NCBI GenBank assembly: GCA_041665485.1
Contig: JBAYIT010000003.1
Coordinates: 3,146 to 67,145 of the forward strand
DNA from: Candidatus Shapirobacteria bacterium
Lineage (GTDB): Bacteria > Patescibacteriota > Microgenomatia > UBA12405
Length of the DNA: 64,000 bases
Direction of reading: 5' to 3'
In this document: piece after piece, positions 27,409-62,926 of the stretch
Layout of the letters: each line of letters opens with the position of its first letter
Position numbering within the stretch: the first letter of the stretch is position 1
The notes under the pieces: model-generated
Database searches by the model: none
Seen by the model: the letters and a program-made list of their open reading frames with translations, nothing else
Told to the model about the DNA's origin: nothing
Position numbers and translations under genes: made by a program

Positions 27409-28749
27409 ATGGAGTTTATAAAAAAATATAAGATTACACTTCTATTGGCGGTTGTTTTAGCCATAGTCCTTTGCTTTTTTACTTTTCCCTTTAAAAACAA
27501 AAGTTATATTTTTGATTGGGATCAAGCCAATGACTATGAAGCCGTTGCTAAAATCGCCGCTGGCAAATTTACTCTAATTGGTCCTCGGGTTACTAGTGAC
27601 AACGGCTTTTTCCTCGGTCCATGGCATTATTATTTCCTCATACCATTTTTTGTTATCACTCACGGGAGTTTAGATATGGGCTTTTTTGCCGTTCTTCTTG
27701 TCCAATACCTATTTGTTATTACCTCGTTTATTTTGGTCAAAAAATGGTTTGGAACCCTTGCTGCTCTTACTGTTGGTGTCTTTTTCGCCACCCAGGCGAA
27801 TATTGTTGCCTGGGGGTTTATGTATGTCCCTCTACTAAGCCTACTTTTCTTTTCTTTCTGTCTTAAAACTATCAAAAATCCCAAATTTTTACCCCTCTTG
27901 TTTTTACTTTTTGGCTTTGGTTGCACCACCTATGCCGTCTTTTATGCTCTAATTTTTCCCTTAACTTATATTTCACTCTCTTTATTAATTCAGCAAAAAA
28001 CCACCTGGAAACAATTTTTTTTGGGAGCTATTTTGGCAACAGTTCCCTATACTCCTCTTTTAATCTTCGACCTTCGGCACAATTTTTTAAATATCAAAAA
28101 CATGCTTGGATTTGCTGGCGGCCAAGCCGGTTCCGGCGCTCAAGCCGGTTATTTTACCAAAGTATTTTTTAGAGCCCTTGAAGTCTCTTGGTTAAATCAA
28201 GAATTTGCCCCCTATCTGTCTTTTATTATCGTAATTCTAACTTTAGTCATTTTAATCGTCGGGGCTCTAGTTCTTTTCAAAAAAAACAAACTTTTTATCT
28301 TTATCTGGCTTCTGTCTTCACTAATTCCTCTAGCCTTTTTTAAAGGCAATGTTTCCGAATATTATTACGCCCCAGTAATCCTTCTCACCCCTATTTTTCT
28401 TTCTGGTTTTTTAGTTAAAAAAGGCAAAATCGGCCAAACACTTTTGGTTGCATTAATACTTTTACTAGTTGGTCTACGGTTAAAAGATAAATATTTCAGT
28501 CCATCAGGCGTCGTTTTAACCGACAAAATTGCCGTTGTTAAGGAATTAGAAAAGTTAAATACCAAATATTCTATTTCCTACGAATTAGGTTTGGGTCAGA
28601 ATAGTGGTTACGATACTATTTTCAAAACAATTGGCAAAAATTATGTTGCCGACGGCTCGTCGCCGCTTTACACCATCACTTACCCCAATACTCCCATCAG
28701 TGGCACCCTCCTCGTCACTACTGGGAAATTATCAATTTACAAAAGATGA
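27409..28749 (+). CDS. polytopic membrane protein, GT-C (ArnT/PMT-like) glycosyltransferase-like
   Basis: 446 aa with about 11 TM helices and an acidic first loop (FDWDQANDYE). Confidence 0.4.
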   Translation: MEFIKKYKITLLLAVVLAIVLCFFTFPFKNKSYIFDWDQANDYEAVAKIAAGKFTLIGPRVTSDNGFFLGPWHYYFLIPFFVITHGSLDMGFFAVLLVQYLFVITSFILVKKWFGTLAALTVGVFFATQANIVAWGFMYVPLLSLLFFSFCLKTIKNPKFLPLLFLLFGFGCTTYAVFYALIFPLTYISLSLLIQQKTTWKQFFLGAILATVPYTPLLIFDLRHNFLNIKNMLGFAGGQAGSGAQAGYFTKVFFRALEVSWLNQEFAPYLSFIIVILTLVILIVGALVLFKKNKLFIFIWLLSSLIPLAFFKGNVSEYYYAPVILLTPIFLSGFLVKKGKIGQTLLVALILLLVGLRLKDKYFSPSGVVLTDKIAVVKELEKLNTKYSISYELGLGQNSGYDTIFKTIGKNYVADGSSPLYTITYPNTPISGTLLVTTGKLSIYKR

Positions 28750-31714: not shown

Positions 31715-31769
31715 AAAAAACAATCCGTCACACAGTCAACTGTTAACGGTTTACTGTTAACGGTAATTG

Positions 31770-31843
31770 TCGGGGATACTGGATTCGAACCAGCAACCTC
31801 ACGGACCCCATCCGCGCGCGCTAGCCAATTGCGCCAATCCCCG
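31770..31843 (-). tRNA. tRNA-Pro (anticodon GGG)
   Basis: 74 nt folded by hand. Acceptor CGGGGAT/ATCCCCG, D-stem GCGC/GCGC, anticodon stem CGCGG/CCGTG with loop AT-GGG-GT, T-arm GCTGG-TTCGAAT-CCAGT, discriminator A. CCA is not encoded. Confidence 0.8.
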
Positions 31844-34915: not shown

Positions 34916-37339
34916 ATGGCGAGAGGTTTAAGTGGTGTTGAAGACCTAAAAGTGTTTCGCATGGAACCTGCCGACTTTAATGACGAAAGTTTACGCTTTC
35001 ATTGGCAAATCGATATTAAACCAACCGGAGATCATTGGCTACTTGCCCGAGAAAGAACCTGGGAGGAAGTTGACGAAGTTTTAGAAGGACGCCTTCAATC
35101 CATCCAAAAATCATTTATTGAAATCGACGGCGATCATCCGCCGGATCAAATAGCTCTGGCTTATGGTATTGATAGACCTATTGGCAACAATCTCTCCCGA
35201 GTTTTAGCTTATTCCGAAATGATCGACGAGTATCGAGTGGTTGTTGCCAGCAATCAACGAAGAGTCCAAAAGAAAAGGCAAGACTATGAGGCTCACAAAG
35301 CCTCTCTTGATGAAGATTTGGTACAAAAAAGAATTAGTTATGCTCAACATCGTCTACAACTTCAAGAGTTTTGGAATCAAGATCAAGGAATTGTTGCAAC
35401 TGAATGTACCCCAAAAATCAAACAAGCAAACAAGATGCAACAGTTAATATATAGAAAAGCTGTAATGGACTTCTTTTCCCTATCAACAGACGAGGCCTCA
35501 AAAACTCCTCTTGTTGTTGAAAACATAGCCAAACTCTATGGCGAAGCCATATTTATTGGAGATCCTACCGCCCATGGTCAAATTAAAAAGCGCGAGCCAG
35601 TCTCTACCTTTTTTACTGGTTTAACTGATTATTTAGCCACCACCACCGACAAATCACTCCTTAGACATTACACATACCGTCATTCTCCAAACATTATTAA
35701 CAGGGAAGAAGATTGCGCCGTTTTAAACCCAGCATTAATAATGGCTTTAGGGGATGACCACCCCCTGGCAGATGTCGCGCCTGGGTACCACCTTCTTGGT
35801 CAAGCCTATTATAAGTTTCTCGTTTCGCAAGCAGTCTTTATCTCGGGATCCAAAGGCTTCGAGGGCTATCCTATTATTGCTCTTATTTATGACTCTCTTA
35901 CTACTGCGGTTTTTTCCGATGATATTGCCGTGATGAGAAGTGTTGCTGGATTAATCGACACCAACCTTCAGCCCTATGCAAGAGGAGACCGTTGTTGTGC
36001 TGAAGTTAGGGCACTAGGTAAACGAACGGCGAAAAGAAAACTATTACTCAGAGATCAAGAAGTAGATACGCCACCCTCTGGGTATGACCCCATTCACCCA
36101 AATGAAAATATTAAAGCCTACATAACAGATGACGAAATTACCTTGTCCACCGCCATTAAATTTTATAACTTATTAATCAGTAGGTATCGTGAACTTTTAC
36201 CACTTAAGACTTCTCGTTTTGTTGAGGCTTTAATTGCAGATATTAAATCGGCAGAAAAATCCGCCTCTGATTCAGCTCATAAATTGGCAGGAGAACCGAC
36301 AGACACAGGATATGCGCTAATGCAGGCTTATGACACTGTTTATCAACAAGTTCTCATCAGTGGTTATTTCAGAAGAGTAAGTTCATCTAGGAATTTAATC
36401 GACGGTCTGTTGTCACTCAACCGAGGTTTACTTTTTCCCGTTGAAGCCGATCCACAATCCACGCGAGTCTTAAGCACTTTTATGGGTAAATTAAACATCG
36501 AACATGGTGCGCTTGTTGCCAAAGCAGAAAAACTAGAAATTCTAAAATCAATCCAAGAAAAAAGAGCTCTTTGCCAAGAGCAGGACCAACCACTTTACGA
36601 CAATGAAATTATTAAATTATATTTAAATTGTTTTTTTGCTGAAACAGTCGAAAGTTTAATCGAGACCAAAAAAGAAAACGACTCTTTACGGCGGGAAGTA
36701 ATCGACAATTCGGTTTGGTTTGTTTCTCCTAGGGGTGATCGTTTTTCAGTTAGAAACGATCCGGAACTTACTGACTATGGGGTTGCTTCTATAACTTTCA
36801 CCATCGACAAAACCTGTCCCCGTGAGTACCAAGTTTTTCTCCAAGTCGAAGGGCTGTCTGACCCCCTGGTATTTTGGTTAGATAAAAATGGTGAGGTTGT
36901 GGGTAGGTCGCATGAACCGCTAGTTTGTGATGTTGGTTTTAAAGAACGTCTAGAGAATCTCCTCCTCAAGCGTTTATACACTATAACATCCGGTATTCTT
37001 GCCGAGGAAGAAGATCCCGAACCGGGGACAGCCGGAGGACCTAGTTTCAGCTATACTCGTGCCCATTATGATCTTCTTGTGTCAACACCGGGCAGAAGAA
37101 TTACCATGGAATCTCATGGGGCCGAAACTCACGCTAGAGAAATTAAGGAAGAATATGGTATCGATATTTTTGAAGAAATTCGTCGTCGTCGGGCCCGAGG
37201 CACATTGGAGCAAAACCAATTTATAACTTTTTCCCGAGAGCATATTCCCGATGTGGTTCAACACCCCCTTCTTCCCAATGAATTGATATACGACCCATCT
37301 CAGGTCAAAATACAACTGTCTCGATCCACGAACCAATAG
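34916..37339 (+). CDS. large hypothetical protein (807 aa), no recognisable domain
   Basis: Long uninterrupted ORF predicted cytoplasmic, with no TM segment, P-loop, HEPN or nuclease motif I can identify. GC is higher (about 45%) than the flanking low-GC genes. Confidence 0.6.
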   Translation: MARGLSGVEDLKVFRMEPADFNDESLRFHWQIDIKPTGDHWLLARERTWEEVDEVLEGRLQSIQKSFIEIDGDHPPDQIALAYGIDRPIGNNLSRVLAYSEMIDEYRVVVASNQRRVQKKRQDYEAHKASLDEDLVQKRISYAQHRLQLQEFWNQDQGIVATECTPKIKQANKMQQLIYRKAVMDFFSLSTDEASKTPLVVENIAKLYGEAIFIGDPTAHGQIKKREPVSTFFTGLTDYLATTTDKSLLRHYTYRHSPNIINREEDCAVLNPALIMALGDDHPLADVAPGYHLLGQAYYKFLVSQAVFISGSKGFEGYPIIALIYDSLTTAVFSDDIAVMRSVAGLIDTNLQPYARGDRCCAEVRALGKRTAKRKLLLRDQEVDTPPSGYDPIHPNENIKAYITDDEITLSTAIKFYNLLISRYRELLPLKTSRFVEALIADIKSAEKSASDSAHKLAGEPTDTGYALMQAYDTVYQQVLISGYFRRVSSSRNLIDGLLSLNRGLLFPVEADPQSTRVLSTFMGKLNIEHGALVAKAEKLEILKSIQEKRALCQEQDQPLYDNEIIKLYLNCFFAETVESLIETKKENDSLRREVIDNSVWFVSPRGDRFSVRNDPELTDYGVASITFTIDKTCPREYQVFLQVEGLSDPLVFWLDKNGEVVGRSHEPLVCDVGFKERLENLLLKRLYTITSGILAEEEDPEPGTAGGPSFSYTRAHYDLLVSTPGRRITMESHGAETHAREIKEEYGIDIFEEIRRRRARGTLEQNQFITFSREHIPDVVQHPLLPNELIYDPSQVKIQLSRSTNQ

Positions 37340-53590: not shown

Positions 53591-55180
53591 TTGGCTAAAT
53601 CCGCTTTAATCAGAAAAAGTATAGCATATAATCAACCTATGTTTATCATCGACGCTAGCACCACCCCCGAAAATCTCAAAACTCACCTCCTCTCCACCCG
53701 CCCTCTTGTCCTCAAACCGGATTTTCCACCAACTCCTATTTCAGTTACCTCTGCTGTCAAACTTATAAAAACTACCATTAAAAAACAGCAAAATATCCTA
53801 ATTTACGGTGATTACGACGTCGACGGTGTTTGTTCCGCCACTCTTTTGTGGCAGGCAATTTATCCCCAAAATCGAAACACCCTTCCCTTTGTCCCCGACC
53901 GTCATCTCGACGGCTATGGCTTTAATTTCAACTCCTATAAGCGTTTTATTGCCGAAAAAAATTTCACCCCCGATTTAGTCATTACTGTCGACAACGGTAT
54001 TGTCGCCACCAAAGAAATTAGAAAACTCAAAAAAACCGGTCTCAAGATTATTATTGTCGACCATCATCTTCCTTCGCCTGATTTACCCCAAGTCAACGCC
54101 ATTGTTCACTCTCCCGAAGTTTGCGCCACCGCCCTGGCTTGGTTTATTGCTAAAGAAATCGATCCCAATTCTGATTTGGGGCTAGTTGCCCTGGCCACTG
54201 TTGCCGATTGTCTTCCCTTAACCGGCGTCAATCGCGCCCTAGTTGTCCATGGCCTCAAAATTTTGAAGCTCAACCCCTCGCCTGGCATTAGGCAATTGGC
54301 CAAGTCGGCTGGTGTCAATTTAGCCACTCTTTCCGCCTATGACTTGGGCTTTATTTTAGCTCCCCGCATCAACGCTGTCGGTCGTCTTACTAACCCCACC
54401 GATGCCCTCCGCCTTCTTTGTAGTCAAAGTCTACCTCAAGCCGGCAAATATACCGAGGTTTTAAATCAGCAAAATCAGGATCGTCAAGTTCTTCAAAAAG
54501 AAAGTTTTGAGCTGGCCAAAACTCTTATCAAGTCAAAAAACAAACTGATATTTATCTCCGAGCCTTCTTTTCATCAGGGAATTATTGGCCTTATTGCTGG
54601 TCGTCTCACCGAAAAATATTATCTCCCTTCAATTGTTGTTAGTCCCGATGGTGATACCGCCAAAGGCTCCTGTCGTTCCATCCCCGAGTTAAATATTATC
54701 GACGCTCTTCGCCAATTTAGTGACTTGTTTGTTGATCTCGGTGGCCATGCCCAAGCCGCCGGTTTTACTATTACTACTGCCAACATCCCAAAGCTCGAAA
54801 AGAAATTAGTCGCCCTAGTTAATAAAACTTTAAAAGATCTGGTCAAGCCGGCCACCTCTGTCGACGCCCAAATGCTTCCTTCTGGCGCCACTTTGGCCAA
54901 TTGCAAAATTATCAAAGAGTTTGAACCCTTCGGTATTGGCAACCCCGAGCCACTTTTTCTTTTTAAAGATTTGGAAATTAAAAGTATACGGGTTTTAGGC
55001 CAAACCGGCGATCATCTTAAACTAAAGTTTGACACCGGTCTCGACGCCATCGGCTTCAAGCAGGGGAGTCTGGCTACTAAATTAAAGGTTGGTGACGCCA
55101 TTACTTTTATCGCCTCCCTCTCAAGCAACACCTGGAATTCCCTCACCACCCCCCAATTGATAATTAAAGAGATTATTTAA
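53591..55180 (+). CDS. recJ: single-stranded-DNA-specific exonuclease RecJ
   Basis: 529 aa. DHH 'IYGDYDVDGVCSAT' and 'VDHH', plus DHHA1 'GGHAQAAGF'. Confidence 0.85.
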   Translation: MAKSALIRKSIAYNQPMFIIDASTTPENLKTHLLSTRPLVLKPDFPPTPISVTSAVKLIKTTIKKQQNILIYGDYDVDGVCSATLLWQAIYPQNRNTLPFVPDRHLDGYGFNFNSYKRFIAEKNFTPDLVITVDNGIVATKEIRKLKKTGLKIIIVDHHLPSPDLPQVNAIVHSPEVCATALAWFIAKEIDPNSDLGLVALATVADCLPLTGVNRALVVHGLKILKLNPSPGIRQLAKSAGVNLATLSAYDLGFILAPRINAVGRLTNPTDALRLLCSQSLPQAGKYTEVLNQQNQDRQVLQKESFELAKTLIKSKNKLIFISEPSFHQGIIGLIAGRLTEKYYLPSIVVSPDGDTAKGSCRSIPELNIIDALRQFSDLFVDLGGHAQAAGFTITTANIPKLEKKLVALVNKTLKDLVKPATSVDAQMLPSGATLANCKIIKEFEPFGIGNPEPLFLFKDLEIKSIRVLGQTGDHLKLKFDTGLDAIGFKQGSLATKLKVGDAITFIASLSSNTWNSLTTPQLIIKEII

Positions 55181-55230
55181 TTTTTTCACTCTTGATTTTT
55201 TCCCTTTCTTTCTGTTATTATCGCCCTCGT

Positions 55231-55446
55231 ATGTTAGATATTTTAAAGCCATTGCCAGAACCATTGTCTATCTACAAGCGCAACAATGGCCACCTTACAG
55301 TCAGACACGATTTTGGTGGTAATGGGACTGTATCTGCCCGTTACGAAGTTATTGGTGATGAGCCAGATCAAATTGTTGTTCGGGGAACCGGTGGTTGTCA
55401 AATAGTGATCTCTCGTTGCCTAATTCAATCGTCGTCTTCTTCTTAA
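55231..55446 (+). CDS. hypothetical protein (71 aa)
   Basis: Internal ATG of ORF 55192..55446. Ser-rich C-terminus. No homology recognised. Confidence 0.3.
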   Translation: MLDILKPLPEPLSIYKRNNGHLTVRHDFGGNGTVSARYEVIGDEPDQIVVRGTGGCQIVISRCLIQSSSSS

Positions 55447-55448
55447 TT

Positions 55449-55490
55449 CTTATCTCTTATCTCTTATCTCTTATCTCTTATCTCTTATTT
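55449..55490. repeat. (TCTCTTA)x6 heptamer tandem repeat
   Basis: tctcttatctcttatctcttatctcttatctcttatctctta. Confidence 0.8.
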
Positions 55491-55663
55491 ATCCGTCCTA
55501 TTTGTCCTCTCTGTCTTATTACGATTTAGTACATTTCTCCTCATTTTCCTATTTTTTTAAATTACAATTACCCCCTCCTTTCTTCAAAGGAGGGGAACAG
55601 GGGTAGATTTAGACAAGGGAAGGGTTTGATTTAAAAGAGATACTTTGATACAATAGCCACAAC

Positions 55664-55975
55664 ATGGAAATATTTGTTAAAGGTAATGTTGGTGGACCTA
55701 GTATTCTCATGGAGACGTATTGTCATGGTCCAGCAAGGGAGTTAGGTTATTCAGATAAAGAAACACCTTGGCGACTTAGTCATCTTTCTATTACAGGAGG
55801 TGTTGGTAAACTCAATTTTGATAACATAGAGTTGTATGCTTGCACAAGATATGAAGATGGTAGATGTGGTGCTGATTCTCAAAAAAGACCTTGTCGTCAA
55901 GCTTGGGTCATAAATTCTCCGCCGGAGTTACGTACAATTGCACTTAATGAGTCCGGGACAGTGACTCTTGACTAA
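55664..55975 (+). CDS. hypothetical Cys-containing protein (103 aa) with atypical codon usage
   Basis: Own promoter-like TTGATT-17-TACAAT (55626-55654). Uses AGA/AGG/GGA codons that are rare in the core genes. Four Cys. Confidence 0.4.
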   Translation: MEIFVKGNVGGPSILMETYCHGPARELGYSDKETPWRLSHLSITGGVGKLNFDNIELYACTRYEDGRCGADSQKRPCRQAWVINSPPELRTIALNESGTVTLD

Positions 55976-56168
55976 GGAATAATTTATCACACCCAAAACA
56001 CAAAAGTTCTGTTATATAATCATTTCATAAGCGCTAATACCTGCCAACACCAGGGAGCTTCGGGAAGAAAAGCTAATCACTTATTAGACCCCGACGGAAA
56101 AGCCACCGTAAAATTGCTTGCCGTGTGTCGTGAAGACGGAGCACGTTTAATTTTTCCTTCGTCATTCA

Positions 56169-56197
56169 CCCTCGCCACGGCGGGGGTTAAATATTTT
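56169..56197 (+). promoter_or_regulatory. terminator-like hairpin + T-tract abutting the aspS start codon (candidate leader/attenuator)
   Basis: ccctcgc-cacg-gcggggg followed by ttaaatatttt and then ATG at 56198. A TATAAT lies at about 56018-56023, giving a roughly 170-nt GC-rich leader. Confidence 0.35.
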
Positions 56198-58438
56198 ATG
56201 GAACGCACAAAAGCTCTCGAATGTCTCGAGAAAATCGGGCAAAAGGTTACTCTCAAAGGTTGGGTGGCCAACATCCGTAACCATGGTCAGATAATTTTTA
56301 TTGAGTTGCGCGATTGGAGCGGTATTATTCAAATTGTTGTCGACAAAGCCCTTAAACCTGAAGCTTTCAAAGTTGCCACCGAACTCGGTAAAGAATATGT
56401 TATTCAAGTTGAAGGCCAAGTTGTCAAAAGAGCCCAGGAATTCGTTAACAAGAAGCTTAAGGCTGGTGAAATTGAAGTTTCTGCCGAAACTATTTTAATT
56501 CTCAACAAAAGTTTACAAGCTCCTTTTCCTCTCGACACCGACGGCCGTGATCTTGATGAAAACTTACGGCTCAAATATCGTTTTGTTGATCTTCGTCGGG
56601 AGCGTATCGCCAAAATTATCCGTCTCCGTCATCAATACACCATGGCCGTTAGAAATTGGATGGATCAACACGGCTTTACCGAAGTTGTTACCCCCATTCT
56701 TACTAGTTCATCTCCCGAAGGTGCCCGGGATTTTATTATTCCCTCCCGTCTTCACCCCGGTCAGTTTTTTGTTCTTCCTCAAGCTCCTCAACAATTCAAA
56801 CAAATGTTGATGGTTGGCGGGGTCGACCGTTACTATCAAATCGCCCCCTGTTTTCGTGATGAAGATCCCAGGGCCGACCGTCATTATGGTGCTTTTTATC
56901 AAATTGATATCGAAATTAGTTTCCCCACCATCGATGAAATTTTTTCTGTGGGTGAAAATTTAATTAAAACAATTTATCCCGTCGTTGCTCCTAAAAAAAC
57001 TCTCAAACAATTTCCTTTTCCTCGTATTACTTATCTCGATTGTCAGGATCGTTATGGCACCGACAAGCCCGACGTCCGTTTTGACATGTTTCTTACCGAT
57101 CTAACTCCGGTTGTTGCCGGCAAAACCGAGTTTGGTATTTTTAATTCTGCCCCGAGCGTTAAATGTCTGGTTGCTCCCGGTTGTGGCAGTTGGACTAAAA
57201 CTGACACCGAGAAAATGGAAAAATTTGCTAAGGAAAAAGGCGCCAAAGGCCTCATAAATTTAAAAGTCACCGACTCTGGCCTCGATGGCAGTATTACCAA
57301 ACATCTTCCTCCGGAAATCCAAACTGAAATTATCAAAACTGCTAGCGCAAAAGTCGGCGACCTGATAATTGTTACTGCCGGGCCTAAGGCCGAAACCAAC
57401 AAAGTTCTTGGTGCTGTCCGCACCCGTCTGGGTGAGCAACTTAAGTTAACCGATCCCAATGAATTGGCTTTTATTTGGATTACCGACTTCCCTTTTTACG
57501 ACATTAATGATGAGGGTAAACTTGATTTTGGTCACAATCCTTTTTCTATGCCCCAAGGTGGTATGTCCGCCTTTGACGCCAAAGATCCGTTAACCATCCG
57601 CAGTTTTCAATACGACCTTGCCGGCAATGGTTACGAACTCCTTTCAGGGTCGATCCGTAATCACGAGCCAGAAACTCTGGTTAAGGCTTTTGAAACTATT
57701 GGTTACACCAGAGATGAGGTTCTTCGCCGTTTCGGCGGTATGTATCAGGCATTCCAATATGGCGCTCCGCCCCACGGCGGTTTCGCCATCGGTTTTGATC
57801 GATTATTGATGATTTTAATCGACGAGCCAAATATTCGCGATGTTTACGCCTTTCCTCTAAACTCCAGTGGTGTCGACGTTCTAATGAACGCCCCCAGCGA
57901 AATTTATCAGAAGCAATTAGACGAATGTCACATTGCTCTCAACCTCAAAAATAGTCCCGTAGCTGATTCCAGTCTCCACGACCGGCTTCTCGCCTTCCTT
58001 GACGACAAACAAATTGTCTATCGCCATCTCACTCATGCCGAAACTCGGACCTCCGAGGAGTCAGCCCAAGCTCGGGGCACTAAATTGGAGCAGGGGGCCA
58101 AGGCTTTAGTCATGTTTGCCGACACCAAACCGGCTCTAGTAGTATTATCCGCCGCCAGCAAACTCGACAACGCCGCCTTCAAAAAGCAGTTTAAAGTCAG
58201 TGATCTGCGCATGGCCACTCCCGCCGAAGTTAAGGCAGTTAGTGGTGCCGAAATCGGCGCCGTCCCGCCCTTTGGCAACCTCTTTAATGTCCCTGTTTAT
58301 GTCGATGAGGGGTTGCTCCAAAACGAGGAAATCGCCTTCAATGCCGGTTTGCTAACGGCTTCAGTCATCATCAAGGCCAAAGATTTTGTTACACTGGTAG
58401 TGCCTCAAATCGGCCAATATGCCCTGGCTACCTCATAA
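56198..58438 (+). CDS. aspS: aspartyl-tRNA synthetase with C-terminal YbaK/ProX-like aminoacyl-tRNA deacylase domain
   Basis: Class II motifs ('FRDEDPRADR', 'GGFAIGFDRLLM'). About 165 extra C-terminal residues ('ALVMFADTKPALVVLSAASKLD...GAEIGAVPPFG...VYVDEGL') resemble YbaK-type deacylases. The ATG at 56198 is preferred over the upstream alternative start at 56114. Confidence 0.85.
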   Translation: MERTKALECLEKIGQKVTLKGWVANIRNHGQIIFIELRDWSGIIQIVVDKALKPEAFKVATELGKEYVIQVEGQVVKRAQEFVNKKLKAGEIEVSAETILILNKSLQAPFPLDTDGRDLDENLRLKYRFVDLRRERIAKIIRLRHQYTMAVRNWMDQHGFTEVVTPILTSSSPEGARDFIIPSRLHPGQFFVLPQAPQQFKQMLMVGGVDRYYQIAPCFRDEDPRADRHYGAFYQIDIEISFPTIDEIFSVGENLIKTIYPVVAPKKTLKQFPFPRITYLDCQDRYGTDKPDVRFDMFLTDLTPVVAGKTEFGIFNSAPSVKCLVAPGCGSWTKTDTEKMEKFAKEKGAKGLINLKVTDSGLDGSITKHLPPEIQTEIIKTASAKVGDLIIVTAGPKAETNKVLGAVRTRLGEQLKLTDPNELAFIWITDFPFYDINDEGKLDFGHNPFSMPQGGMSAFDAKDPLTIRSFQYDLAGNGYELLSGSIRNHEPETLVKAFETIGYTRDEVLRRFGGMYQAFQYGAPPHGGFAIGFDRLLMILIDEPNIRDVYAFPLNSSGVDVLMNAPSEIYQKQLDECHIALNLKNSPVADSSLHDRLLAFLDDKQIVYRHLTHAETRTSEESAQARGTKLEQGAKALVMFADTKPALVVLSAASKLDNAAFKKQFKVSDLRMATPAEVKAVSGAEIGAVPPFGNLFNVPVYVDEGLLQNEEIAFNAGLLTASVIIKAKDFVTLVVPQIGQYALATS

Positions 58439-59324
58439 ATTAATTCTGCTTTTCGTTATTTTGGCACTGGGTTATTTTCTCGCCTGGCCCTTAACTTCGC
58501 CCAATCCGGTTGACCCCCATCTTTTGCCTCTAATTAACTTTCCTTTAGCCTCTCCGCCAGTCGTCAAAAATCCCACTCCGCCTCAACTTGGCGCCACCAG
58601 TTTTATTTTGGTCGACGATCTAACCAACACCGTCCTTATTGCTAAAGATCCCGACCAGAGGATTTACCCCGCCTCCACCACCAAATTGGCCACCGCCCTC
58701 ACCGCTCTCAATATTTATCCTCTCGATGAGGTCGTCACTGTCAAAGAAAAATACACCGAAGGCAAAATTATGAATTTGCAACTTGGTGAAAAAATAACTA
58801 TTAGGTCGCTCTCCACCGCTCTCTTAATTTTTTCCGCCAATGATTCCGCCATAGCTCTAGCCAACCATCATCCCCAAGGTCGATCCGGCTTTATCACCGA
58901 GATGAATGCTCTGGCCAAAAAATACTTACTCACCAATACTAATTTTACTAACGTTGACGGCATCCATTCACCTCTCCATTACAGCACTGTCACCGATTTA
59001 GCCCAACTTGCCCGGGTTTCAATTCGCAATCAGTTTGTTGTCGATACCGTCAAAAAAACCTCCGCCACTGTCACCGATCTTTCCAGCGCCATCTCTCACC
59101 CCCTTGTCACCACTAATGAATTATTGGGTAAATACAGAGAAATCGAAGGCCTCAAAACCGGTTGGACGCCCGAAGCCGGCGGTTGTTTTGTTGGCCTCAT
59201 CAATCTTTCCGGCCATCAACTTATTAGCGTTGTTGCCCAAAGCCCCGATCGTTTCGCCGACACCCTCGCCCTCCTCTCCTGGGCCCAATCCAACCTCACC
59301 TGGCCTCGTCCTTCGACTCTCTAA
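58419..59324 (+). CDS. D-alanyl-D-alanine carboxypeptidase (peptidase S11, PBP5/6-like)
   Basis: 301 aa with a signal-anchor and 'ASTTKLATAL' (SxxK), 'SAND' (SxN) and 'KTGWT' (KTG) motifs. Confidence 0.8.
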   Translation: MPWLPHKLILLFVILALGYFLAWPLTSPNPVDPHLLPLINFPLASPPVVKNPTPPQLGATSFILVDDLTNTVLIAKDPDQRIYPASTTKLATALTALNIYPLDEVVTVKEKYTEGKIMNLQLGEKITIRSLSTALLIFSANDSAIALANHHPQGRSGFITEMNALAKKYLLTNTNFTNVDGIHSPLHYSTVTDLAQLARVSIRNQFVVDTVKKTSATVTDLSSAISHPLVTTNELLGKYREIEGLKTGWTPEAGGCFVGLINLSGHQLISVVAQSPDRFADTLALLSWAQSNLTWPRPSTL

Positions 59325-60348
59325 TTCTTTTTTCTTCCTGACTTCCGTTAGTTTTCTTTACCATCCTGTCAAAATCTGACTCCAGCAATTTGTCTTGCAT
59401 TACTCGGTATTTTTCAAATTCCTTTTCAGCCAAGGCCAGTGCTATTTCGTGGGAAACTTTTCCCGTATCTTGAAGTATTCTTTGTCGATTAAACCGTAAG
59501 AAAGCATCCAATTTTTCAACCCAATCCTTCATGTACATAATCTGTCCATCAGTCGCCTGGAGTTCTGCATAATCCAAATACATAGTTACAATTCGATTTA
59601 ATTGATCAAGCTCTTTTTCATTCAAATAGTTTTTGGCAATACCAATATCTGTCTTTCTAACTCTCCCTTTGGGAGAATTTTTCCAGTTCGTTAACCCCAT
59701 ATTTTGTTTGCCACTATCAACCCTTGATTGAATTATCTCAGCCGCTGTTTGTCCGGCGATAGCCCAATGCAGTTTGTTTTGCACTGTCGCAAAAAATTGT
59801 TTAGTGATTTCTTCATCTGGATTGTAGTCGGCACTACACTGGGCGTAAATATCAGTTATCTTTTGATAAAAACGGCGCTCACTCGAGCGAATGTCTCGAA
59901 TACGAGCCAATTGTTCTTCAAAATAGTCTTTACCAAAAATACGCCGTGGGTCTTTAAGTCGTTCATCATCCATCGTAAACCCTTTAATTATGTATTCTTT
60001 AAGTCTTTCCGTTGCCCAAACTCGGAAATGAGTCGCCCTTACCGAATTAACCCGATATCCCACCGAGATAATTGCATCGAGATTGTAGAATTTTGTCTGA
60101 TAAGTTTTATTATCGCTAGCAGTACGTGCAAAATTTGCACATACTGAGTTTTCCTGCAATTCTCTATCCTTAAATATATTTTTAAGATGTTTTGTCACTA
60201 CACTTCTCTCTACACCAAAAAGCTCGGCAATCTTGACTTGAGAAAGCCATATATTTTCATCTTTCAGAAAAGTCTCAACCTTCACTTTGCCGTTTGGTGT
60301 GGTGTAGAGAAGAAAATTTGGTTCAGTTTTAACCATTATTTTTTTCAT
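59296..60348 (-). CDS. RhuM-family protein, paralog 2
   Basis: 350 aa sharing 'YNLDAIISVGYRVNS', 'RVWATERLKEYIIKGFTMDDERLK' and 'KNYLNEKE' with 733..1776. Inverted orientation relative to paralog 1. Confidence 0.8.
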   Translation of the reverse strand: MKKIMVKTEPNFLLYTTPNGKVKVETFLKDENIWLSQVKIAELFGVERSVVTKHLKNIFKDRELQENSVCANFARTASDNKTYQTKFYNLDAIISVGYRVNSVRATHFRVWATERLKEYIIKGFTMDDERLKDPRRIFGKDYFEEQLARIRDIRSSERRFYQKITDIYAQCSADYNPDEEITKQFFATVQNKLHWAIAGQTAAEIIQSRVDSGKQNMGLTNWKNSPKGRVRKTDIGIAKNYLNEKELDQLNRIVTMYLDYAELQATDGQIMYMKDWVEKLDAFLRFNRQRILQDTGKVSHEIALALAEKEFEKYRVMQDKLLESDFDRMVKKTNGSQEEKRIRESKDEAR

Positions 60349-60363
60349 CTTTTTGTTTTTCCA

Positions 60364-60393
60364 AATTCGTAGATTCGTAGATTCGTATATTCT
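60364..60393. repeat. TTCGTAGATTCGTAG-family repeat
   Basis: aattcgtagattcgtagattcgtatattctt, immediately upstream of the RhuM#2 start. Confidence 0.65.
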
Positions 60394-61433
60394 TAGTTTT
60401 GTACTAGCTCGTTGGCCACTGCCGGCACATAAGCCACAAAATTGCCATCGCCGGCAAACACATACACCGGTTGTAAATAATTTGTCAGTGTCACCGGCTC
60501 GAAATAGGCCAAAGACATCTCTCTTATTCCTACCTTGGAATTAGTCGTGTCCGACACCGGCCAATAATTTCCCGCCTGTAATTCCGCCCAGGCCGTTTCC
60601 GGGCTTTTAATTGGGTAAGTTGAATAAGAATCTCGGGCCATATCGGCATACTTATAGTTAACCTCCAAAATCTTTTTTCCCTCCACTGTCGATCCGGAAA
60701 CCAGCATCGAAATTGAGGCCCGGTTAAGCTCTGTCCCCACCATTTTAAAATCACCCTCCAAATTATCCCGAAAAAAGTCGACTCTGGCCACATTTGCCTC
60801 TGATTGGGCCGGCGCCGCCTTTAGCCCATCCGATTCTATTTTCCAGTAACTAACCGCCTTTTTACCGTTTTCCAAATCCGGTTTCATTTTTCCTGCTGTT
60901 TCCAAATAATTTTTGGCAATATTAATTGCTTCTTCCTTGCTTGGCACTTTCTCCTGAGCAAATATTAGTTGGTCGTTGCTGTATGGGTAGCTCATCACAA
61001 AACTGCCATCGAGGACATTCATTTTTAAGGATTGGTTTAACTGGTCATTTTTAAACTCATAAATCGTTTCGTTGAGTTTGGTTGGCTCCTGCAAAAACCC
61101 CAATCCCTTAGCCATTTGGGTGTAATAATCAATTGCCAGCAAACTACTGCTTGGCCGGTAAAGAACGTATACTCTGGCCTGATCGGAAAATTTTGGGAAA
61201 GAATCATTTGGAAGTTCGCGGGAAAATGTCTTTTTATCAAATTTCTTTTCCGGGAAAACCGTTTTTGGTAATTTTCCAAACCTAACTGTTGGCGGAGTAT
61301 AAGGCGGGTGGGCTGCTTTATAAGCAGCGATGGCCATTCCCACCACTGAATACATAATTGCCATCATCACCACCACTATTCCCCCGTATTTAATTACCAA
61401 TCTTGCCTCGTAAGCCGTCGTCGTTAAAGACAT
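60393..61433 (-). CDS. membrane-anchored hypothetical protein (346 aa)
   Basis: N-terminal TM 'IVVVMMAIMYSVVGMAIAAY'. The remainder is predicted extracytoplasmic. No family recognised. Confidence 0.45.
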   Translation of the reverse strand: MSLTTTAYEARLVIKYGGIVVVMMAIMYSVVGMAIAAYKAAHPPYTPPTVRFGKLPKTVFPEKKFDKKTFSRELPNDSFPKFSDQARVYVLYRPSSSLLAIDYYTQMAKGLGFLQEPTKLNETIYEFKNDQLNQSLKMNVLDGSFVMSYPYSNDQLIFAQEKVPSKEEAINIAKNYLETAGKMKPDLENGKKAVSYWKIESDGLKAAPAQSEANVARVDFFRDNLEGDFKMVGTELNRASISMLVSGSTVEGKKILEVNYKYADMARDSYSTYPIKSPETAWAELQAGNYWPVSDTTNSKVGIREMSLAYFEPVTLTNYLQPVYVFAGDGNFVAYVPAVANELVQN

Positions 61434-61501
61434 AAGATCATTTTAACTTATTTATCACTAACATCTAGGATCTAAGATCTAGGATCTTATATAATACTCT
61501 C

Positions 61502-62926
61502 ATGATTCGCACCCGCATGGCTCCCAGTCCTACTGGCGAATACCACATTGGCCATATTCGCACTTTGCTCTATAACTACGTCTATGCTAGGCAAAACAAA
61601 GGGCAATTTGTTATTCGTATAGAAGATACCGATCGAAAACGTTTCGTTGCCGGAGCTCAAGAAAGAATTTTGCAGGTAATTAAAGACTACGGTTTTTCTT
61701 GGGACGAAGGTCCCGATATTGGTGGTCCCTATGCTCCTTATGTTCAAACCGAAAGACTAGCAATTTACGAAGATTATATTAAAAAATTAATTGCTATCGG
61801 TGGGGCTTATTATTGTTTTTGCACTGAAAATCGGCTTGAAGAAATGAGAACTCTTCAAAAAGCCGCTGGCCATATTCCCAAGTATGACAAACATTGTCTT
61901 AATTTATCTCCCGAAGAAATAGAAACTAATTTGAAAAATAAAGTACCCTATGTTGTTCGTCTTAAAATACCGCCCAATGAAACAATTAAAATTAATGATA
62001 TTGTTCGGGGAGAAATCATATTTAACACTAACGATGTCGATGATCAAATTTTAGTTAAATCAAATGGTATTCCTACTTATCATTTTGCTGCTGGTATTGA
62101 TGATCACTTGATGAATATCACTCATGTTTTACGTGGTGATGAATGGATTTCATCTCTTCCTAAGCAATACACCATTTATAAATGTCTTGGTTGGGACTTG
62201 CCCCAATTCGCCCATCTAACTGTCTTTTTAGATCCTGCTGGAGGAAAAATGAGTAAACGTCATGGCTCCGTCTCCGCCAGAAGCTTTCTTGATGACGGTT
62301 ATCTTCCCGATGCCTTACTCAATTTTTTAATGCTCCTCGGTTGGAACCCAGGGACCGATAGAGAGTTATTCACTCTCGATGAATTTATTAATGAATTTAG
62401 TTTGGCCAAACTTCACACCAAGCAACCAGTTTTTGACCGGAAAAAGCTGGATTATTTTAATGGCCTTTATATTCGGCAAAAATCCGATGCCGATCTTTTT
62501 CCCTATTTCAAAAAGTTTTTACCTCAAGCTTCCGATGATCAAATTACCGCCCTAACTCCAGTATTAAAAGACAGATTAGTTAAATTTGGCGATCTACCAA
62601 TTCAAACTAAGTTCTTATTTGAAGACGTTGATTATCCCACTGACCTTTTACTTCAACGTGGGGCTGATAGGGGATTAGTTGTTGATATTTTGTCCAAAAC
62701 CAAAGATTTATTATTTGGTCTTGAAACTTTTAACTTTATAACTTTACAAACTAAATTAATGGATCTTATTTCATCAAACGGCTGGAACGTCGGTCAGTTT
62801 TTCATGGTCCTGCGGGTGGCCATTTGTGGAGCTCCTCAAACCCCGCCTCTGGTTGAATGTCTGCCTATCCTTGGCAAAGAAAATACCCTAAGGAAAATCG
62901 ATCTGGCTCTTGCTAAACTGAAATAA
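61502..62926 (+). CDS. gltX: glutamyl-tRNA synthetase
   Basis: 474 aa with 'RMAPSPTGEYHIGHIRT' (HIGH) and 'KMSKR' (KMSKS) motifs. The C-terminal region contains an in-frame AACTTTATA-type segment (62721-62752, 'LETFNFITLQT'). Confidence 0.92.
   Translation: MIRTRMAPSPTGEYHIGHIRTLLYNYVYARQNKGQFVIRIEDTDRKRFVAGAQERILQVIKDYGFSWDEGPDIGGPYAPYVQTERLAIYEDYIKKLIAIGGAYYCFCTENRLEEMRTLQKAAGHIPKYDKHCLNLSPEEIETNLKNKVPYVVRLKIPPNETIKINDIVRGEIIFNTNDVDDQILVKSNGIPTYHFAAGIDDHLMNITHVLRGDEWISSLPKQYTIYKCLGWDLPQFAHLTVFLDPAGGKMSKRHGSVSARSFLDDGYLPDALLNFLMLLGWNPGTDRELFTLDEFINEFSLAKLHTKQPVFDRKKLDYFNGLYIRQKSDADLFPYFKKFLPQASDDQITALTPVLKDRLVKFGDLPIQTKFLFEDVDYPTDLLLQRGADRGLVVDILSKTKDLLFGLETFNFITLQTKLMDLISSNGWNVGQFFMVLRVAICGAPQTPPLVECLPILGKENTLRKIDLALAKLK

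Follow-up and report, generated by a model that had tools for sequence, protein, structure and literature searches.

Deacylases of the INS superfamily (Pfam PF04073, YbaK/ProX fold) that have been characterised have a conserved lysine and a GXXXP loop as their common catalytic elements. The only INS-type domains described as covalent parts of a class II synthetase are the INS insertion of prolyl-tRNA synthetase (ProRS) and the N-terminal ProXp-ala of some protist ProRSs. Of nine INS clusters, three (ProXp-7/8/9) are listed without assigned function in a review from 2024, which described the superfamily members other than the ProRS INS domain as single-domain proteins. Here, we report an aspartyl-tRNA synthetase (AspRS) gene, aspS::edit, whose product ends in an editing domain of this superfamily. 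The gene lies in a 64,000-nucleotide stretch of contig JBAYIT010000003.1 from Candidatus Shapirobacteria bacterium (assembly GCA_041665485.1). This whole stretch is called the window below; its positions are used throughout, and the coordinates of its features are collected in Table 1. The same pairing was found with three types of AspRS in several lineages, and the domain may be a deacylase that is functionally coupled to AspRS.

Several described systems come close to this arrangement. ProXp-x, represented by TTHA1699/ProX of Thermus thermophilus (PDB 2cx5/2z0k), is a trans-acting post-transfer deacylase of Abu- (2-aminobutyrate) and Ala-tRNA, and its reported substrates are small and neutral. 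YbaK deacylates Cys-tRNA(Pro) and takes its specificity from its synthetase partner and from protection by EF-Tu, not from read-out of the tRNA. Even for fused INS-type domains, release of the product and re-binding "in trans" has been proposed; class II synthetases let their product go fast. In the AspRS-GatC bifunctional enzymes (NF009460), a bacterial-type AspRS carries a C-terminal add-on related to tRNA(Asn), namely GatC. To our knowledge, no editing activity has been described for AspRS, and none was found in the literature searched.

The domain of the window protein has the same Lys/GXXXP chemistry as ProRS INS and ProXp-ala-ProRS. However, the window domain is C-terminal and its partner is AspRS instead of ProRS; ProXp-ala is found at the N-terminus, and INS interrupts its synthetase between motifs 2 and 3. 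With YbaK it shares the fold and the catalytic lysine at about 20% identity, while its loop reads GAVPP and that of YbaK GGxSP; specificity through partner and EF-Tu, as in YbaK, is the logic proposed for the window domain below. ProXp-x has the catalytic lysine, the GxxPP loop and the fold in common with it, but stands alone, has no FN motif and carries Val where the window domain has an arginine, R626 (domain position 32, hence R32). The C-terminal layout is like that of AspRS-GatC, with a deacylase-type domain in place of GatC.

In the preliminary description of this locus, an editing domain on AspRS was said not to be the standard bacterial arrangement, and this agrees with the single-domain statement of the 2024 review and with the lack of any AspRS fusion in the literature searched. 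Neither an AspRS-INS/YbaK fusion nor an Asp-tRNA(Asn) deacylase is described in the full texts searched, although the chapter that defined ProXp-7/8/9 (Kuzmishin Nagy 2020) may contain a mention. An editing domain appended to a synthetase is an arrangement of a known kind; what is new here is AspRS as the partner of an INS-type domain and, probably, the substrate class.

A Complete AspRS with an Additional C-Terminal Module

The forward-strand frame at 56114-58438 is open, and translation from the ATG at 56198 gives 746 residues and a stop. This ATG, which had been preferred over a start at 56114 from the beginning, is the best start because three lines of evidence agree on it, namely the NCBI model of the protein from a Candidatus Shapirobacteria metagenome-assembled genome (MAG; MFA6518828.1, 746 aa, 100% identical), the N-termini of homologs, which align at this start with an invariant R3, and a G-rich stretch upstream that may serve as ribosome-binding site. 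The earlier length of 747 aa holds for the codons, while the protein itself has 746 residues, the stop having been counted; the three peptide strings quoted with it all occur in the translation.

The NCBIfam aspS equivalogs match residues 11-583 (NF001750, 711 bits, cutoff 443; TIGR00459, 592 bits, cutoff 374). The AspRS part is a complete bacterial-type enzyme with OB fold, class II core and GAD insertion, and because the equivalog match stops at residue 583, the C-terminal 150-160 residues constitute an extra module. An additional module had been recognised before, and only its size, then given as about 165 residues, needs correction. Two other identities for the region were rejected. A GAD variant does not explain the module, as the GAD insertion is present separately and the profile search placed the PF04073 module apart from it, and the protein scores far below the cutoff of the AspRS-GatC bifunctional family (NF009460, 438 bits against 1379). 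Among 24 fused proteins, the mean identity is 0.47 in the editing domain, compared with 0.52 in the OB fold, 0.50 in GAD and 0.29 in the linker; conservation of the editing domain is thus on a level with that of OB fold and GAD, unlike that of the linker.

An error in sequencing or assembly, or a frameshift error, could have merged two neighbouring genes, and in a close relative (locus L001) both modules are indeed separate genes, which lie 2 nt apart in different frames. However, ENA assembly ERZ27249449 and Logan run SRR6484324, both from different samples, encode the identical fused protein as well, so that the fusion is not an assembly artefact. Moreover, about 28 diverged full-length homologs (735-758 aa, 52-70% identity, one of them labelled Candidatus Nomurabacteria) have the same four-domain architecture, fusions with other types of AspRS exist, and the linker is in frame with a length that varies between homologs. 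An artefact is effectively refuted by the independent assemblies and the diverged homologs, and we consider it vanishingly improbable. The finding also matters for annotation, since the fused proteins are abundant in databases and are annotated there as plain "aspartate--tRNA ligase" or "aspartate--tRNA(Asn) ligase".

Identity of the C-Terminal Domain

The first reading of the module as a YbaK/ProX-type domain was borne out by sequence profiles, by a PDB sequence match and by the predicted fold, and the module is almost certainly an INS-superfamily (PF04073) domain. The Pfam profile tRNA_edit matches with E = 2e-27 in the full protein (96 bits, cutoff 25.5) and with E = 8e-29 when the domain is searched alone. 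The AlphaFold (AF2) model of the isolated domain reaches a predicted local distance difference test score (pLDDT) of 96.8. In Foldseek comparisons, this predicted fold was superposed on APE2540 (1wdv, template modelling score (TM) 0.90, 20% identity), T. thermophilus ProX (2cx5/2z0k, TM 0.87-0.88, root-mean-square deviation 1.9 A, 30% identity), Haemophilus influenzae YbaK (1dbu, TM 0.86, 21% identity) and lpg1207 (3op6, TM 0.81-0.84, 33% identity).

In 24 fused homologs, neither the catalytic lysine K635 nor the GXXXP loop varies, and both are conserved over 129 aligned domains; about 15 further positions are invariant in all fused proteins. This conservation bears on the idea that the module is a non-catalytic tRNA-binding or scaffold domain, which for example holds the acceptor end of Asp-tRNA(Asn) or aids transamidosome assembly, in parallel to the C-terminal GatC of some AspRSs. 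The AspRS-GatC family is a precedent for a C-terminal AspRS add-on serving the Asn pathway, and the C-terminal domain of plant ProXp-ala shows that appended domains can raise tRNA affinity. A purely structural role is nevertheless disfavoured because such conservation of lysine, loop and further positions would not be expected in a structural domain, and we regard it as very improbable.

Within the superfamily, two candidate identities were rejected. One is YbaK proper, whose models match the domain with scores well below their cutoffs (TIGR00011, 57-62 bits, cutoff 153; NF007951, 20-25 bits, cutoff 243). The other is ProXp-ala: A2, a profile of the editing domain, matches the Caulobacter crescentus ProXp-ala structures 5vxb and 1vjf with E of about 1e-6, compared with 8e-46 for 3op6, and the fold search gave 16% identity to 1vjf. 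The profile A2 contains three lpg1207-like rows, which inflates its score to 3op6. Its matches to structures of the ProRS INS and ProXp-ala kind are likewise weak (1e-6 to 5vxb and 2j3l, 4e-12 to 5znj). The match to 2cx5, the ProXp-x representative, has E = 1e-17 and is much weaker than that to 3op6.

Recurrence of the Pairing with AspRS

A scan with an alignment of editing domains over one genome per GTDB species gave at least 600 stretches; relatives are encoded by at least 594 of these, and the analysis covered the 80 best loci (numbered with L below). Among these, a class IIb synthetase ends in the editing domain in 19 loci and has it directly downstream in two others; the loci counted as free include some that have no upstream flank. 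Every partner tested by NCBIfam and Pfam was an AspRS, and three kinds were distinguished. The bacterial type with GAD is found in the window and in L015. The bacterial type without GAD, of about 615-640 aa, is found in L009 and L010 (scanned, with NF001750 matching in two stretches), and L011 and L012 resemble these two by length of the open reading frame (ORF) and tblastn identity; the protein P0341 has a contiguous AspRS core with no match to GAD. The third kind is the archaeal or "aspartate--tRNA(Asn) ligase" type (NF003483, 445-456 bits, cutoff 353), with scanned examples from Shapirobacteria (L005 and L006), from Chlamydiae-labelled contigs (L030 and L054) and from an unclassified MAG (L043). 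Locus L007 (Woesebacteria) and seven more loci, mostly Chlamydiae-labelled, fit this third pattern by ORF length and tblastn identity.

The pairing occurs in Patescibacteria, in MAGs labelled as archaea and in Chlamydiae, among them Parachlamydia acanthamoebae. The taxonomic labels of MAGs may err, since Patescibacteria-like genes were seen on contigs with the labels "uncultured Gammaproteobacteria" and "Nanoarchaeota SAG". A bacterial-type AspRS fused or adjacent to a domain of the R-type clade defined below was seen on JBHPFW010000008.1 (L015, with the Nanoarchaeota SAG label) and CAYIQA010000010.1 (L034, with a Woesearchaeota label); these are either horizontal transfers into DPANN archaea or mislabelled Patescibacteria.

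The Microgenomates loci, including those with the archaeal-type enzyme, occupy the same slot, in the order RecJ - aspS::edit - Peptidase_S11 - hypothetical - glutamyl-tRNA synthetase (GluRS, gltX). The editing domains of L005-L007 are 60-68% identical to that of the window, whereas the AspRS bodies of these loci share only about 30% identity with the AspRS body of the window. Because the same syntenic slot holds alike editing domains and unlike AspRS bodies, the AspRS body has been exchanged while the editing module stayed. Fused and split forms alternate among close relatives, because in L001 and L008 the AspRS gene is followed at once by a gene of its own for the editing module; the AspRS bodies nearest to that of the window (72-76% identity) are unfused. 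The order RecJ - aspS(::edit) - Peptidase_S11 - 346-aa hypothetical (on the opposite strand) - GluRS is kept in the window (53591-62926) and in L001, L005, L006, L009 and L010.

The Chlamydiae-type loci that were scanned have another gene context, with PNPase or RlmL upstream. All of the best homologs of the Chlamydiae type are fused (120/120), including those of Parachlamydia acanthamoebae (WP_006341711.1, and WP_013925582.1 in the complete genome of UV-7). A HMMER scan, run exhaustively over 1.84 billion cluster representatives, identified 3,074 relatives of the editing domain at E ≤ 1e-3. An AspRS segment was present in 12 of the 150 nearest representatives, and none of these 150 has a synthetase partner other than AspRS. 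The arrangement recurs beyond the genome of the window, with three types of AspRS, in several lineages and in alternation with a split form.

Links of the editing domain to other proteins were also observed. It is fused N-terminally to Peptidase_S11 in P0264 and P0297 (486 and 505 aa), and in a locus from Saccharibacteria (L017:3989-5717) the edit gene overlaps an S11 gene; this link is either a function-blind fusion of neighbours or a tie to cell-wall or D-amino-acid metabolism. Among the further relatives P0247, P0270, P0360 and P0335, the first (448 aa) has three PF04073 stretches by Pfam, P0270 and P0360 have two or three matched tRNA_edit stretches by HMMER stretch count only, and a protein of 1012 aa has ATP-grasp matches followed by a C-terminal tRNA_edit domain.

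A Clade Defined by an Arginine

In sequence, the window domain appears to belong to an lpg1207-like cluster, which is itself uncharacterised and may be one of ProXp-7/8/9. The protein lpg1207 of Legionella pneumophila (3op6), an uncharacterised product of structural genomics, is its top sequence match (phmmer 1.7e-18, besides the A2 match given above). The two have H19, T24, K41, the G93xxPP97 loop, F120 and N121 in common, and H19, T24, K41, GxxPPFG and FNxG are shared motifs of the lpg1207-like proteins. A neighbour-joining tree of 129 editing domains, computed without support values, splits the domains into two clades, an R-type clade containing the window domain and a lpg1207-type clade, with 2cx5 outside both. 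Five columns separate the two clades in spite of the shared motifs. The lpg1207 subclade has A25, I/V28, A32, H33, L39, T42, M95 and L128, where the window domain has S25, S28, R32, G33, G39, A42, V95 and S128, and lpg1207 is free-standing whereas the window domain is fused to AspRS.

The clade-defining residue is the arginine at domain position 32, which is absent from the lpg1207-type clade (A/S/Q there), from ProXp-x and from YbaK. Further differences lie at position 25 (S in the R-type, A in the lpg1207-type) and position 28 (S/A against I/V). Linkage to AspRS is confined to the R-type among the best 80 loci (21/45 for the R-type and 0/35 for the lpg1207-type. P-value = 4e-7, Fisher test, uncorrected for phylogeny).

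Between T24 and K41, the domain is collinear with residues 262-279 of ProRS INS and the alignment is free of gaps, so that K279 corresponds to K41, position 266 to position 28 and position 270 to R32. L266, a pocket-lining residue of E. coli INS, modulates amino-acid specificity, as does its equivalent in ProXp-ala. The residues specific to the R-type clade (R626, G633, A636 and S722) lie at such specificity-tuning positions of INS or beside them. Where INS has this hydrophobic Leu, the clade of the window domain has Ser/Ala plus the arginine, and R32 lies one helical turn past position 28 on the same helix (residues 25-32 in the model). The change from hydrophobic residues to Ser/Ala/Gly plus Arg suggests a larger, positively charged aminoacyl pocket, which would fit an acidic aminoacyl group.

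These residues also bear on the alternative that the domain is a generic trans-editing factor like ProXp-x or ProXp-ala, which would strip tRNA(Pro), or several tRNAs, of small non-cognate residues like Ala, Abu, Ser or Thr and would owe its link with aspS only to operon neighbourhood and gene compaction, the fusion giving co-expression. Such a role would suit the nearest characterised relative by sequence and fold, which is T. thermophilus ProX, and the alternation of fused and split forms in close relatives; the domain is also joined to the unrelated downstream Peptidase_S11, and most members of the clade stand alone among varied neighbours. The label 'Ala-tRNA(Pro) deacylase' that free-standing relatives bear at JGI points the same way, but it is an automated orthology assignment and not evidence. 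On the other side, the residues of the pocket helix are polar or cationic and not hydrophobic as in the sister clade and at INS 266, and the association with AspRS has outlasted a swap of AspRS type within one locus, recurs in another gene context in the consistently fused Chlamydiae proteins, and has no counterpart with another synthetase among the 150 nearest representatives. We consider a generic factor rather unlikely.

A cationic pocket with R626 would suit the Asp side chain in another way as well. In this alternative, chiral proofreading, the domain would hydrolyse D-Asp-tRNA(Asp/Asn) made by AspRS and, in reduced genomes, would take over from D-aminoacyl-tRNA deacylase (DTD) or act beside it. 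Charging of D-Asp by AspRS and its removal by DTD were reportedly established in work by Soutourina et al. in 2000. Specificity for the D-form conflicts neither with L-Asp-tRNA(Asp) nor with the L-Asp-tRNA(Asn) intermediate, and the gene in Patescibacteria adjoins that of a D-Ala-D-Ala carboxypeptidase. However, the S11 neighbourhood is absent from the Chlamydiae loci scanned, and the literature examined holds no case of chirality-based selectivity in an INS-superfamily enzyme. Chiral proofreading is improbable in our judgement.

A Possible Checkpoint on Asp-tRNA(Asn)

Because the catalytic lysine and the GXXXP loop are kept and the linkage with AspRS recurs over partner types, we infer that the tethered domain may be an active post-transfer deacylase functionally coupled to AspRS. 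It would hydrolyse an acidic aminoacyl-tRNA after AspRS has released its product, and its preferred substrate would be L-Asp-tRNA(Asn) that escaped amidation by GatCAB. Asp-tRNA(Asp) would be spared because EF-Tu protects it, a mechanism proposed for Cys-tRNA(Cys) in the case of YbaK, or alternatively through read-out of the acceptor stem, as is done by ProXp-ala. That the domain acts on products of AspRS is a tentative proposal, to which we give a little less than an even chance. If it does so, Asp-tRNA(Asn) would be somewhat the likelier substrate; another acidic analogue is the remaining possibility, D-Asp-tRNA being kept as the separate alternative given above. The most specific form of the proposal, in which the R-type domain would be an Asp-specific deacylase and the first hydrolytic proofreader dedicated to the indirect Asn pathway, R626 would bind the side-chain carboxylate and Asp-tRNA(Asp) would be spared by EF-Tu or by read-out of the tRNA(Asn) acceptor stem, is unlikely to be right as a whole.

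In the current view, Asp-tRNA(Asn) is kept from translation only by channelling, slow product release and weak binding to EF-Tu. Asp-tRNA(Asn) binds EF-Tu poorly yet still gives misincorporation; overexpression of non-discriminating AspRS is toxic in E. coli, and the non-discriminating AspRS of Helicobacter pylori is without hydrolytic activity. The link to a non-discriminating AspRS and the tRNA-dependent Asn pathway, which was raised in the preliminary description, is a plausible possibility.

Position 29 of the window protein is His, which aligns with His of 5w25 and 5gro (named Asp/Asn ligases by their depositors), where E. coli has Leu, and the same His is present in all fused (26/26) and all unfused (94/94) patescibacterial AspRSs examined. 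Position 81 is Glu in the window protein, Gly in 5w25 and 5gro and Lys in E. coli. In a study by Bernard et al. from 2006, H31 and G83 of Pseudomonas aeruginosa AspRS are reported to be tied to acceptance of tRNA(Asn) by bacterial-type enzymes.

A number of points weigh against a deacylase coupled to AspRS. The signal for a non-discriminating enzyme is ambiguous, with a His29 that looks non-discriminating and a position 81 that fits neither type. Neither gatCAB (gatA, gatB) nor asnS or proS was found by Pfam among the 20 long ORFs of the window, to which the scan was limited within this genome, or in the precomputed annotations of L003. For an organism that relies on the indirect pathway, hydrolysis of Asp-tRNA(Asn) by its own maker would seem a waste. 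The nearest representatives are mostly free-standing (138/150), so the core job of the domain need not involve AspRS, and the free-standing R-type members sampled outside Patescibacteria have no recurring neighbour. The occasional fusion to the downstream Peptidase_S11 indicates that neighbours can be fused in compact genomes without an obvious shared function. In the full-length AlphaFold model (predicted TM score 0.57), the linker is disordered and the domains are without confident mutual docking. The R-type clade and its nearest solved relative, lpg1207, are both biochemically uncharacterised, and the position of R626 at the pocket is suggested by sequence register and not by coordinates.

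That a conserved deacylase domain has stayed with AspRS in several phyla and through three types of the enzyme suggests a further checkpoint that has gone unrecognised. The INS superfamily would be extended by another synthetase partner and, probably, by a substrate class new to it. If the most specific form of the proposal holds, AspRS would count among the editing synthetases in Patescibacteria, in some lineages labelled as archaea and in Chlamydiae, and the R-type domains would form a previously unrecognised functional family within the superfamily. The presence of the fusion in Parachlamydia acanthamoebae (WP_013925582.1) makes the idea directly testable.

Features of the Window

Table 1. 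Features of the fused gene aspS::edit and of the gene cluster around it.
Feature	Position in window	Strand	Remarks
Fused gene aspS::edit	56198-58438	+	746 aa + stop (747 codons); identical to NCBI MFA6518828.1
GGGGG stretch, possible ribosome-binding site	56182-56186	+	11 nt upstream of the ATG; predicted from sequence
OB-fold anticodon-binding domain (tRNA_anti-codon), residues 17-101	56246-56500	+	Pfam; contains His29 (56282-56284)
Class II (D/K/N) catalytic core (tRNA-synt_2), residues 120-555	56555-57862	+	Pfam, E 2.4e-102
GAD insertion domain, residues 317-404	57146-57409	+	Pfam; typical of bacterial-type AspRS
Inter-domain linker, about residues 576-596	57923-57985	+	Variable length; mean identity 0.29; pLDDT <50 at residues 576-591
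INS-superfamily (PF04073, YbaK/ProX fold) editing domain, residues 597-746	57986-58435	+	Profile, PDB sequence match, predicted fold
Pfam tRNA_edit (PF04073) match, residues 613-732	58034-58393	+	Profile positions 1-122 of 123
R626 codon (domain position 32), clade-defining Arg	58073-58075	+	R in 86/86 R-type domains, including all AspRS-linked ones
G633 (domain position 39)			G in R-type; L/F/M in lpg1207-type
K635 codon (domain position 41), conserved INS-superfamily catalytic Lys	58100-58102	+	Invariant in all aligned relatives
A636 (domain position 42)			A in R-type; T in lpg1207-type
G687-A-V-P-P691, GXXXP loop of INS superfamily	58256-58270	+	Alignment
V689 (domain position 95)			V in R-type; M in lpg1207-type
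S722 codon (domain position 128)	58361-58363	+	Ser in R-type; L/T/I in lpg1207-type
RecJ gene	53591-55180		Part of cluster
Peptidase_S11 (D-Ala-D-Ala carboxypeptidase) gene	58419-59324	+	Overlaps 3' end of fused gene by 20 nt; part of conserved cluster
GluRS (gltX) gene	61502-62926		Part of cluster

The interval between RecJ and the fused gene (55192-56100, roughly 1 kb) contains two short ORFs of about 71 and 103 aa by the ENA calls, or 84 and 103 aa, for which no Pfam match was recorded; L001 has a 259-aa PIG-L gene in this place. Two genes of the RhuM family (PF13310) are present in the window, at 733-1776 on the forward strand and at 59296-60348 on the reverse strand. The second is an insertion that separates the S11 gene from the conserved 346-aa hypothetical gene, and L001 does not have it at that position.

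The window contains a single tRNA gene, tRNA-Pro(GGG) at 31769-31843 on the reverse strand, and no tRNA gene is present at the 21 AspRS-linked loci. Pfam gave no match at E <= 1e-5 for two long ORFs of the forward strand, at 34916-37339 (807 aa) and 27409-28749 (446 aa).

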